IMG/VR virus record: IMGVR_UViG_3300036398_002324
Origin: a virus
Length of the DNA: 64,000 nucleotides
Reading direction: 5' to 3' (one strand)
Part shown: piece after piece, positions 3,171 through 20,938 of the stretch
How the letters are laid out: every line of letters begins with the position of its first letter
Numbering within the stretch: position 1 is the first letter of the stretch
The notes under the pieces: model-generated
What the model was told of the DNA's origin: nothing
Database searches by the model: none
The model's input: the letters and a program-made list of their open reading frames with translations, nothing else
Translations under genes and position numbers: made by a program

Positions 3171-3563
3171 ATGAGTGAGCCAAGAATCGTATCAAATCGA
3201 ATTCGTACTCCTGATGGTACGATTCTTGAATCCATGCATCGGCATGATTATGTAACTTATATTGATACAAATGGACTCGAATACATGGTTGATGGCGGCT
3301 TGGATTACCTGCGCCGTAATGTACATGATGAAGCACCCGCTGAAGAATTATCGGTATATTCCAGTGAATCGCACGATGTAATTCGTGAAGCATTCAAGTG
3401 GGGAACACGTGGCAAAGATGGTAGACAGCCTTTGACATATGTACCGCTGAAAGACTTGACAACAGACCACATTGTGGCTATACTTGAAACTCAAGATCAT
3501 ATTCAGCAATATATCAGAAATATTTTTTTGGATGAGATGATTTTTAGAACAAAAAATGTATAA
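3171..3563 (+). CDS. conserved phage hypothetical protein
   Basis: SMHRHDYV..MVDGGLDYLRR..WGTRGKDG motifs. Confidence 0.7.
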   Translation: MSEPRIVSNRIRTPDGTILESMHRHDYVTYIDTNGLEYMVDGGLDYLRRNVHDEAPAEELSVYSSESHDVIREAFKWGTRGKDGRQPLTYVPLKDLTTDHIVAILETQDHIQQYIRNIFLDEMIFRTKNV

Positions 3564-3566
3564 ATA
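3559..3566 (+). promoter_or_regulatory. T4-type late promoter TATAAATA
   Basis: exact consensus; predicted +1 near 3572, the A of the leader ATG. Confidence 0.7.
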
Positions 3567-3571
3567 AGATT

Positions 3572-3667
3572 ATGAACAAACATATACACAATACGAAGCC
3601 CTGCCAAGAGTATCGCACATTTAGCGATAATGGATCATGGGCGATTACGTTGGGAGTTTGTGTATAG
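3572..3667 (+). CDS. putative attenuator leader peptide containing all 20 amino acids (MNKHIHNTKPCQEYRTFSDNGSWAITLGVCV)
   Basis: 31 codons, 28 distinct; no SD; last codons are the antiterminator 5' strand; not in ORF track. Confidence 0.7.
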   Translation: MNKHIHNTKPCQEYRTFSDNGSWAITLGVCV

Positions 3668-3703
3668 AAGTTAGTCTGTAGCATAAGATTACACAAACCC
3701 CGA
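3650..3703 (+). promoter_or_regulatory. antiterminator helix
   Basis: TTGGG(A)GTTTGTGTA 3650-3664 pairs with TACACAAACCCCGA 3690-3703, sequestering the terminator 5' arm. Confidence 0.7.
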
Positions 3704-3729
3704 AGCCCAAAAAGTTTCGGGGTTTTTTT
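3695..3729 (+). terminator. intrinsic terminator (attenuator) immediately before tRNA-Pro
   Basis: CCCCGAAGC / GTTTCGGGG stem, 7-nt loop, T7 tract 3723-3729. Confidence 0.85.
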
Positions 3730-3731
3730 AT

Positions 3732-3805
3732 CTCGGTGTGGTGAAATGGTATCATGCGTGGTTTGGGACCATGCGGCGAAAGTTCGATTCTTTCCACCGA
3801 GACCA
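3732..3805 (+). tRNA. tRNA-Pro(TGG)
   Basis: CTCGGTG/CACCGAG acceptor, anticodon TGG, GTTCGA, encoded CCA. Confidence 0.95.
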
Positions 3806-3811
3806 GAATAA

Positions 3812-3869
3812 TGTGTTGTAAAACAACAACACAAAAATGCTTGACAGTTTGGCGAAATATCTTTATAAT
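3812..3869 (+). promoter_or_regulatory. perfect sigma70 promoter for the tRNA array with upstream inverted repeat
   Basis: TTGACA 3841-3846, 17 nt, TATAAT 3864-3869; TGTGTTG-N8-CAACACA 3812-3833. Confidence 0.85.
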
Positions 3870-3890
3870 CGTTTCTGTTGAGTGATTGAA

Positions 3891-3902
3891 GTTCTTTAAA
3901 AA
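3891..3902 (+). promoter_or_regulatory. boxA-like antitermination site
   Basis: GTTCTTTAAAAA just downstream of the promoter, resembling rrn boxA. Confidence 0.55.
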
Positions 3903-3914
3903 GTGTGAATCAAA

Positions 3915-4004
3915 ACAGGTGTGAGCGACCTGTCTCTGAAAAGAGTTGAGCAAGGGTTTGATGCAGTAATGACTTCGGCATCATGTAATAGTCTGTTCCT
4001 TGTT
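3915..4004 (+). ncRNA. candidate structured RNA in tRNA-operon leader
   Basis: ACAGGT/ACCTGT, CTCT-GAAA-AGAG, AGCAAGGG/TCCTTGTT enclosing TGATGC/GCATCA. Confidence 0.4.
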
Positions 4005-4026
4005 AGTTTGCGAATTTTAGTTTTAT

Positions 4027-4561: not shown

Positions 4562-4563
4562 AG

Positions 4564-4755
4564 TTCCGGTTTCTACTTACCTGAAAGTAGCGGGTGTCAC
4601 ACGTTAGTTAGACCGGTTGGCTAGGCTACCGTTAGCGCAATGCAGAGCAGAGCACCTAGATATCCGGACACAACCGGTAGCACGATACGCTGAAACAAAT
4701 GTGGACAGGGTAAAAACTCAGCATAGGGGCGATGACTGGAAATCACGTAGCCTAA
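4564..4755 (+). ncRNA. candidate pseudoknotted ncRNA
   Basis: non-coding, GC-elevated; crossing 8-bp helices 4612-4619/4671-4678 and 4622-4629/4747-4754. Confidence 0.5.
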
Positions 4756-4758
4756 GCA

Positions 4759-4888
4759 ATATTAGTTTTGCAGTTTGTAAGCCATGGGCTTGATCATGCC
4801 TGAGTAACTATGTCTATAAACGGTAAAGAAAGTCCTGCAGGCTACTCCGTTGAAACATAGCAAATAGTGCAGACTGCAAAACTAATAT
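4759..4888 (+). ncRNA. candidate ncRNA closed by a 21-bp terminal stem
   Basis: ATATTAGTTTTGCAGTTTGTA / TGCAGACTGCAAAACTAATAT with inner helices. Confidence 0.55.
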
Positions 4889-4973
4889 GGGTTGGAAGCA
4901 TCAATGGTGATGCAGTGGACTGTAAATCCGCCGTCTTCGGGCACGACTGGTTCGATCCCAGTACAACCCACCA
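4889..4973 (+). tRNA. tRNA-Tyr(GTA)
   Basis: anticodon GTA, long variable arm, CCA. Confidence 0.93.
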
Positions 4974-4979
4974 TATTTT

Positions 4980-20447: not shown

Positions 20448-20618
20448 ATGGAAATTAGTGAAAAAGAATACGATGAAAAATTGGATGAATATCTGAGAGA
20501 ACAAGGACCAAATCTAGGTGAAACATTTTTTGGCGCATGGGGTTGGTATGCAACAAAACGAAATGAGTTTAATGCGATATTGAAAGAGGAAGGAATTGTT
20601 GTAATCCCTTCAAAGTGA
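20448..20618 (+). CDS. small hypothetical protein (56 aa)
   Basis: GGAG SD; MEISEKEYDEK... Confidence 0.55.
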   Translation: MEISEKEYDEKLDEYLREQGPNLGETFFGAWGWYATKRNEFNAILKEEGIVVIPSK

Positions 20619-20938
20619 AGGCATTCTGGACGAGGGTTCGATTCCCTCCATCTCCACCAGAAACATTCTTGTCCATGGAGTTGGGAACGGACAGATAAAC
20701 CGTGAGAGTGTTTCTCATGGGGATGACCTGGTTTCGACAGGGTGAGATAGCAGAGAAGGCAACACGAAAGGCGACGGACGTAATCCGAGCAAATAATATA
20801 ACCGCAAATGACGAGTTATACGCTCTAGCAGCCTAAATTGCTAGATGAGGTTTCGCCGACTGTCCTTATTATCCAATCAGTCGGCATCAATTATGGGTTT
20901 GGTGGCATCACCCGAACAAGAGTTCAAAAAACCACCAC
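20617..20938 (+). ncRNA. ssrA: circularly permuted (two-piece) tmRNA
   Basis: T-arm plus CATCTCC-A-CCA (to 20659) precedes GGGGATG..TTCGAC (from 20719) with G3.U70; tag ANDELYALAA* 20804-20836; downstream pseudoknots; ends approximate. Confidence 0.9.

Follow-up and report, generated by a model that had tools for sequence, protein, structure and literature searches.

Leader-peptide attenuation is a textbook mechanism for the control of amino-acid operons. In the enterobacterial leaders trpL, hisL, leuL and pheL, a short open reading frame (ORF) is translated upstream of an intrinsic terminator that precedes the regulated genes, and the leader RNA can form mutually exclusive pairings between its segments (1:2, 2:3 and 3:4). 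The stop codon lets a terminating ribosome mask segment 2, and a hairpin within the leader is a possible pause site. One leader can report several amino acids, as in ilvGMEDA (Ile, Leu and Val) and thr (Thr and Ile), where two or three amino acids are represented by many codons each. Attenuation also ties genes of the translation apparatus to the charging state of tRNAs: the pheST attenuator senses one amino acid, and T-box leaders act without a ribosome by binding uncharged tRNA directly. Arrays of tRNA genes are frequent in large phages. To our knowledge, little is known of how these arrays are regulated, and searches of the full-text literature turned up no description of tRNA genes, whether of phages or of other origin, under leader-peptide attenuation. 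Here we describe an element of about 170 nt located in front of the tRNA-Pro gene of a 64,000-nucleotide stretch of viral DNA (IMG/VR record IMGVR_UViG_3300036398_002324; "the window" below means this whole stretch). The source phage was a myovirus with T4-like baseplate genes. We consider it likely that the element is a trp-type attenuator, in which ribosomes mediate the control of transcription into phage tRNA genes. This reading is carried by an open frame, three covarying helices, a terminator, the position of the tRNA gene and a match between leaders and tRNAs across sister elements.

The element had the same parts as the enterobacterial leaders, including the exclusive pairings, the placement of the stop codon and the hairpin within the leader (Table 1). 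It differed from them in its regulated genes, which would be phage tRNAs and not biosynthetic enzymes, and in its codon usage: runs of regulatory codons for one amino acid were absent, and each of the 20 amino acids was represented by one to three codons. Thus, the class of mechanism is a known one, and what is new is the tRNA-gene target, the leader that appears to be matched to a tRNA repertoire, and a possible leaderless late start. An earlier note, made from the letters of the window, had proposed an attenuator whose leader peptide contains all 20 amino acids. Its description of the locus was accurate on every point checked. The upstream TATAAATA motif and the ATG lay where it had placed them, recounting gave 31 codons with 20/20 amino acids and 28 different codons, its TATCGC/GCGATA repeat formed the inner stem of the internal hairpin, and a strong terminator stood directly 5' of tRNA-Pro. 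The pairing that it had drawn between the last codons and segment 3 was also recovered. Namely, when the 3' terminator arm was left out, 3650-3654 and 3656-3664 formed 14 bp with 3690-3703 and left one A bulged (-19.1 kcal/mol, z = -4.3 relative to shuffles). The complete 160-nt stretch folded at -45.1 kcal/mol (z = -4.2), and this minimum-energy fold contained the terminator together with a helix between 3583-3591 (codons 4-7) and 3658-3666 (the last codons). The pairing of segment 1 added a third segment that the earlier note had missed, and thereby completed the classical four-segment layout. The two sigma-70 promoters of Table 1 were likewise absent from that note. The terminator stem started 27 nt 3' of the leader stop codon. 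Because of this distance, direct masking of the terminator by the ribosome, which was studied previously (PMC4824070), should be minor.

Table 1. Coordinates of the attenuator element, of the neighbouring promoters and tRNA gene in the window, and of sister leaders in other loci.
Feature	Position	Strand	Description
Sigma-70-like promoter	3456-3484	+	TTGACA-17 nt-TATACT; 11 of 12 consensus positions; inside the 3' end of the upstream gene
TATAAATA motif	3559-3566	+	5 nt 5' of the ATG; candidate T4-type late promoter
Leader ORF	3572-3667	+	ATG at 3572; 31 codons plus TAG
Segment 1 (anti-antiterminator strand)	3583-3591	+	Codons 4-7; pairs with segment 2 in the minimum-energy fold of the window element
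Internal two-tier hairpin	3598-3642	+	Inside the ORF; inner stem 3611-3616/3624-3629; predicted fold
Segment 2	3650-3666	+	Last five codons and first two bases of the stop codon; partner is segment 1 or segment 3
Segment 3	3690-3703	+	3' strand of the antiterminator; shares 3695-3703 with the terminator 5' arm
Intrinsic terminator	3695-3729	+	Stem-loop 3695-3725 with 12 pairs and a 7-nt loop; T-run to 3729
tRNA-Pro (UGG)	3732-3805	+	First gene behind the terminator; no room for a promoter of its own
Perfect sigma-70 promoter	3841-3869	+	TTGACA-17 nt-TATAAT; 12 of 12 consensus positions; after tRNA-Pro
Type B leader	L056:1321-1419		32 codons; TATAAATA-N5-ATG; all 20 amino acids
Type C leader	L087:3902-4030		42 codons; 20 amino acids
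Type D leader	L104:8940-9032	-	30 codons; 17 amino acids
Type E leader	L077:2680-2784		34 codons; 15 amino acids
Type F leader	L095:1115-1234	-	39 codons; 12 amino acids
Type G leader	L158:488-580		30 codons; 16 amino acids
Leader of G010 block Lys/Trp/Phe/His	L262:235-345		12 of 35 residues are K, W, F or H
Leader of G010 block Arg, Leu x4, Asn x2, Val x2, Cys x2, Thr x2	L264:312-416		21 of 33 residues in the set, P = 2e-4
Leader of G010 block Gln/Pro/Asp	L265:298-396		Eight-residue stretch almost all P, Q, D

The GenBank phage collection contained no close DNA relative of the window, and a tblastn search of this collection with the leader peptide returned chance matches only (E of about 5). 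Homologues were sought in IMG/VR and in freshwater metagenomes, using the upstream protein, an invariant 20-mer and a peptide alignment. The element of the window, which we call type A, was found in 41 metagenomic phage loci, corresponding to 30 distinct DNA sequences and 28 distinct peptides. The trp/his-type geometry proposed in the earlier note was kept in all 30 sequences, and compensatory changes were present not only in the terminator and the antiterminator, the two helices for which it had called for covariation, but also in helix 1:2. Pairs were counted on an alignment of these elements (A2), where the terminated fold was taken as helix 1:2, two internal stems and the terminator. Under this fold 91.7% of the cells were paired and five pairs had changed on both sides; when the partner strand was slid by 1-3 columns as a control, pairing fell to 30-47%. 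Helix 1:2 corresponded to columns 5-19 with 88-101 (segment 1 being codons 2-7 here) and had three compensatory pairs. These were pair 9-97 (AU or UA), pair 10-96 (CG, UG or UA) and pair 15-92 (AU, GU or GC). At pair 10-96, the replacement of the TAG stop by TAA in L042 and L050 was matched in codon 4, where CTA had changed synonymously to TTA.

The antiterminator corresponded to columns 81-96 with 118-133, was paired in 87% of cells and varied at pair 92-122 (UA, UG or CG). Most of its unpaired cells came from seven L004-type rows in which a bulge shifts segment 3 of the alignment by one base; the folds of these single sequences showed the helix. Column 92 of segment 2 was of particular use because it faces column 15 in helix 1:2 and column 122 in the antiterminator. 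Columns 15/92/122 read A/U/A in most sequences, G/U/A in L034 and L049, A/U/G in L051-L055, and G/C/G in L028 and L029. Thus, C was present at column 92 only where the partners in segment 1 and segment 3 were both G, and this three-way change matches the prediction for a strand that would pair alternately with two partners. The same constraint was visible at the end of the ORF. The synonymous positions of codons 29-31 were invariant in the 30 sequences, and the sole change within these codons (GTA to GCA in codon 31 of L028 and L029) altered the amino acid and was accompanied by G in both partner strands.

The stem of the terminator was paired in all cells (100%), with compensatory changes at pairs 134-150 (GC, CG or AU) and 135-149 (AU or GC), and the predicted energies of the 30 terminators were between -13.2 and -18.9 kcal/mol. 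When the 3' arm was withheld, the antiterminator formed in 30/30 sequences (-16.4 to -27.8 kcal/mol) and sequestered at least 6 of the 8 bases of the terminator 5' arm in each. Full-length folding gave helix 1:2 plus the terminator in 23 of the 30 sequences and the antiterminator in four. The inner stem of the internal hairpin was also paired in every sequence, synonymous sites included, with a single C-to-U change that produced a G.U pair, and its loop accepted changes that altered the amino acid. Since the stem was fixed even at synonymous sites while the loop varied, this hairpin is best regarded as an RNA feature, possibly a pause site for RNA polymerase.

The position of the tRNA gene relative to the terminator was the next line of evidence. 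The tRNA-Pro(UGG) gene started 0-4 nt behind the T-run in 28 of 38 loci. A sigma-70 promoter was inserted between the T-run and the tRNA in another eight loci, and the remaining two had no tRNA within 260 nt. A promoterless tRNA located directly behind a strong terminator needs read-through for its expression, which argues that the terminator is regulated. We also considered an attenuator that is specific for Pro, and rejected it: Pro codons numbered 0-2 per leader, and they were missing from one variant in spite of its downstream tRNA-Pro.

From this anatomy we infer that the frame is translated, and likewise the sign of the response, the codons to be sensed and the promoter that feeds the leader. 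In the proposed mechanism, the RNA would switch between two folds. With segments 1 and 2 paired, segment 3 would be available to segment 4 for the terminator, and pairing 2:3 would block the terminator. A leader with no ribosome would form helix 1:2 and the terminator, and transcription would stop at 3729. If a ribosome kept pace with RNA polymerase up to the stop codon, it would cover segment 2, so the terminator would again form and transcription would stop. If the ribosome, or a queue of ribosomes, were delayed earlier in the leader, segment 1 would be covered and segment 2 would be free; helix 2:3 could then form, with read-through into tRNA-Pro and on into the array. The signal would most likely be the slow decoding of any of many codons, with starvation, loss of tRNAs, or phage tRNAs that are not yet made as possible causes. 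Thus, slow reading by ribosomes probably leads the phage to make more tRNA, and the increased synthesis of phage tRNAs would close a feedback loop on decoding capacity.

Sister elements of other types were found as well. The type B leader came from a complete 169.8-kb record (the one behind L008) of a more distant relative in which the tRNA array was located elsewhere in the genome. Its antiterminator was a perfect 13-bp helix (-28.3 kcal/mol, z = -5.5) followed by a terminator, and a tRNA-Ser gene began 6 nt after it. The type B peptide had little in common with that of the window past the first three residues, and both contained all 20 amino acids. The array of this phage consisted of 25 tRNAs for all 20 amino acids, and the full-length type A arrays covered 18-20 amino acids. 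Five further leader types (C-G, Table 1) were obtained from two pattern scans whose filter asked only for an ORF, a terminator and a tRNA. Among these, type E had no antiterminator at the end of its ORF and had a complementary stretch further upstream.

Leaders in front of partial sets of tRNAs also bore on the relation between leader and array. The first tRNA block behind the type D leader stood for 12 amino acids, each of which was present in the leader. The type F leader, located in a 327,676-bp phage record before a Cys/Ile/Ser/Phe/Gly block, had 22 of 38 residues in this set (P = 1e-4). Moreover, four tRNA blocks were examined in a 131,933-bp phage record (G010), and three of them had a leader ORF and a terminator of their own, each enriched for the amino acids of its block (Table 1); the fourth block (L263) had no such leader. 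The three G010 leaders had AATATATA about 5 nt before the ATG and shared a common upstream sequence. The match of composition between leaders and tRNA blocks depends on the reading frame, which argues that the leaders are translated. An all-20 leader is, on this evidence, the limiting case of a rule by which the amino acids of a leader follow the repertoire of the tRNAs downstream of it. As a side observation, the type F leader was rich in Ser, Thr, Ile, Phe and Gly and resembled in style the Thr/Ser/Ile-rich thr leader of enterobacteria.

A broader proposal can be made from these sister elements, although we regard the case for it as evenly balanced. It holds that the phages have a family of "test genes", in which each tRNA block stands behind a tiny leader, possibly leaderless and driven by a late promoter, that is written in the amino acids decoded by the block, and in all 20 where the array is complete. 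Such a family would work as a codon-by-codon homeostat of decoding capacity, topping up the phage tRNAs when, for example, starvation, host shut-off or anticodon nucleases have drained those of the host. A leader in which the entire genetic repertoire is sampled would measure translation capacity as a compact, natural device, and it would provide a direct and testable link between phage tRNA genes and starvation or the tRNA-targeting defences of the host. In addition, an element of this size could serve as a reporter of decoding speed, with cell-free testing possible.

The probability that a 31-residue ORF contains all 20 amino acids depended on the model used. It was 1e-4 with the amino-acid usage of the window proteins, 4e-4 with base composition, 1e-3 when the bases of the ORF itself were shuffled and 2e-3 under uniform usage. 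Among real sequences, 1 of 14,115 31-mers in the window proteins was complete, as was 1 of the 196 small ORFs in the window, this one being the leader. A single all-20 ORF is not significant over a scan of such size, and it is the recurrence in sister leaders that makes the significance. For the seven leader types we shuffled the bases of each leader with M1 and the last four codons fixed. Under this null, completeness had a probability of 1e-4 to 2e-2 per leader. Three of the seven leader types (A, B and C) were complete, and the probability of at least three of seven was 6e-7.

A number of observations weighed against the reading of the element as an all-amino-acid sensor that gates the array. 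The earlier note expected amino-acid diversity to be conserved despite divergence. This was true of types B and C, but within type A only 16 of the 28 distinct peptides had 20 amino acids, while seven had 19, four had 18 and one had 17. The 12 incomplete peptides missed one to three amino acids, Leu in 10 cases, and the sole Leu of the consensus leader was at a variable position. Changes in type A were rarer at singleton than at duplicated residues, but most of the singletons were located in RNA-constrained stems, and the single Leu had changed three times. Within type A alone, selection for completeness would have to be called unproven. There was also no locus-by-locus agreement between missing residues and missing tRNAs: L019, L022 and L081 had Leu in the leader and no tRNA-Leu downstream, and L020 had tRNA-Leu downstream and no Leu in the leader. 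Val was present only in codons 26-31 in type A and in the last codon in type B. It should not be sensed because a ribosome stalled there would cover segment 2, which limits sensing to fewer than 20 amino acids. Segment 1 would stay free if a single ribosome stalled in the middle of the leader, and sensing there would need a trailing ribosome. Unlike the trpL-type leaders, that of the window had no Shine-Dalgarno sequence 5' of its ATG. Finally, the perfect sigma-70 promoter behind tRNA-Pro, whose position was conserved in homologous loci, means that the attenuator is not the sole gate. As predicted from its sequence, this promoter drives tRNA-Glu and the rest of the array without the attenuator. 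The gating of the tRNA array proposed in the earlier note therefore stands for tRNA-Pro, which the putative attenuator gates fully, and not for tRNA-Glu onward, where it only adds to transcription. The all-amino-acid reading was likewise upheld by the complete and the block-matched sister leaders, and cut back by the 12 incomplete variants and the placement of Val. We also observed that Leu was the commonest loss from the leaders (10 variants) and tRNA-Leu the commonest loss from the arrays (those of L018, L019, L022 and L081), the two losses not coinciding in single loci.

Some of these points would be explained if the attenuator is real but acts as a general coupling sensor that responds to ribosome supply, initiation or the global elongation rate. 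The all-20 content would then be an unselected by-product of a high-complexity, structure-constrained RNA. This alternative, which we consider unlikely, accounts for helices and a frame that are conserved while completeness is lost, for the codons for Gly, Val and Cys at the end of the ORF, which are dictated by segment 2, and for the presence of Val where sensing cannot occur. Additionally, frames 2 and 3 of the leader RNA were also residue-rich, encoding on average 15.7 and 16.5 different residues, respectively. On the other hand, the recurrence of complete leaders was calculated with the last four codons fixed, types A and B were both complete with nearly no residues in common, and the block-enriched sister leaders make sense only if codon identity is read. 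These three points favour an attenuator that senses codons over one that senses coupling in general.

The conservation of the frame bears on the remaining alternatives. As the earlier note anticipated, the homologues kept the short ORF. It was open in 40/40 complete copies with a length of 29-31 codons, always started with ATG, and ended with TAG (TAA in one clade). The only indels were of -3 and -6 nt. Frames 2 and 3 contained stops in nearly every copy, and no stop had arisen in the leader frame where the observed changes predicted 2.0-3.4. This conservation, together with residues 14-20 and 22-24 that formed an invariant core within type A, could point to an ordinary gene for a small protein with the terminator of the upstream operon behind it, a commonplace arrangement in which the pairings would merely stabilise the mRNA. 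We consider this improbable for several reasons. Variable columns were not concentrated at third codon positions (14, 16 and 19 at positions 1, 2 and 3), and the peptide family formed one single cluster among 1.84 billion representatives. The invariant core coincided with the stem of the internal hairpin, whose loop tolerated amino-acid-altering changes. Moreover, the sister leaders shared the RNA design while their peptides were unrelated, and the promoterless tRNA right after the T-run in 28 of the 38 loci requires read-through. A frame that is maintained around a weakly conserved peptide is, as far as can be judged from DNA, the mark of a regulatory leader and not of a functional small protein.

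Conversely, the element could be an untranslated RNA switch whose helices are set by a ligand, a protein or uncharged tRNA, with the open frame being incidental. The strong conservation of nucleotides and weak conservation of the peptide, as well as the missing Shine-Dalgarno sequence, would fit such a switch. However, the frame was open in every copy, its indels were all in frame and both other frames had stops, a pattern that would hardly be incidental, and the stop codon was always within segment 2. The frame dependence of the match between leaders and tRNA blocks also speaks against it. No Rfam family scored above threshold for the window, the best being Thr_leader (RF00506) with 19.3 bits relative to a gathering threshold of 55 (E = 0.57), and the same search of the window gave no T-box elements. 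We therefore regard an untranslated switch as very improbable. An arrest peptide, whose nascent chain would stall the ribosome on some signal as in TnaC or SecM, fits the invariant core of type A, but the core was absent from types B, C, D and G and its conservation in type A extended to synonymous sites and followed the RNA stem, making this the least probable of the alternatives.

Two promoters could feed the attenuator. The TATAAATA motif contained the stop codon of the upstream gene and had the sequence of the gp55-dependent late promoters of T4. The spacing TATAAATA-N5-ATG was found in four leader types (A, of the window, as well as B, C and G). The T4 late promoter motif is centred near -10, and a spacing of 5 nt would then start the RNA on the ATG. 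A leaderless transcript, starting at or next to the ATG from this candidate late promoter, is thus plausible, and it would resemble the leaderless cI mRNA of lambda. The presence of the 8-mer and of T4-like baseplate genes agreed with this comparison. In contrast to T4, the 8-mer was found only twice in the 64 kb, where 6.4 occurrences were expected, and at the place of the motif most type A relatives had [CGT]ATATATA; taken over type A outside the window and type E, the form was [ACGT]ATATATA. We rejected the full 8-mer as a general promoter motif of the window on the basis of its count, and a search for 8-mers enriched before the ORFs of the window found nothing. The core TAAATA ranked first of the 64 A/T hexamers at 10-40 nt before ORF starts.

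The second is the sigma-70-like promoter further upstream, which is a candidate early promoter for the leader transcript. Its hexamers were identical in most homologous loci although they are located within coding sequence. It was lost in L042-type loci, which had a promoter after the terminator instead.

Several minor features were noted around the array. A GTTG-N8-CAAC palindrome at 3812-3833 lay a few bp 5' of the -35 box belonging to the perfect sigma-70 promoter, and a dimeric regulator could use it as its operator; L001, L002, L003 and L006 had a similar palindrome and promoter behind tRNA-Pro. Between this promoter and tRNA-Glu, a stretch of about 150 nt (3875-4026) was conserved in L001, L002, L004, L006 and L021 and was missing in L003 and L005, where tRNA-Glu was close behind the promoter. 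It contained no convincing ORF and had no Rfam match, and it may be a co-transcribed small RNA. Further along, the array of the window lacked tRNA-Tyr and had a 420-nt gap behind tRNA-Asn (4562-4979); in relatives, tRNA-Tyr(GTA) was located beside tRNA-Gln.

Three different tRNA-Pro(UGG) genes were found behind near-identical leaders, namely that of the window (74 nt), L001:3589-3667 (79 nt) and L003:3582-3658 (77 nt). Since the tRNAs of the window and of L001 differed despite leaders that were 97% identical, this suggests an exchange of tRNA-Pro cassettes by recombination. Finally, ARAGORN called a tmRNA gene at 20567-20927 of the window, near the tRNA array, with the tag ANDELYALAA.

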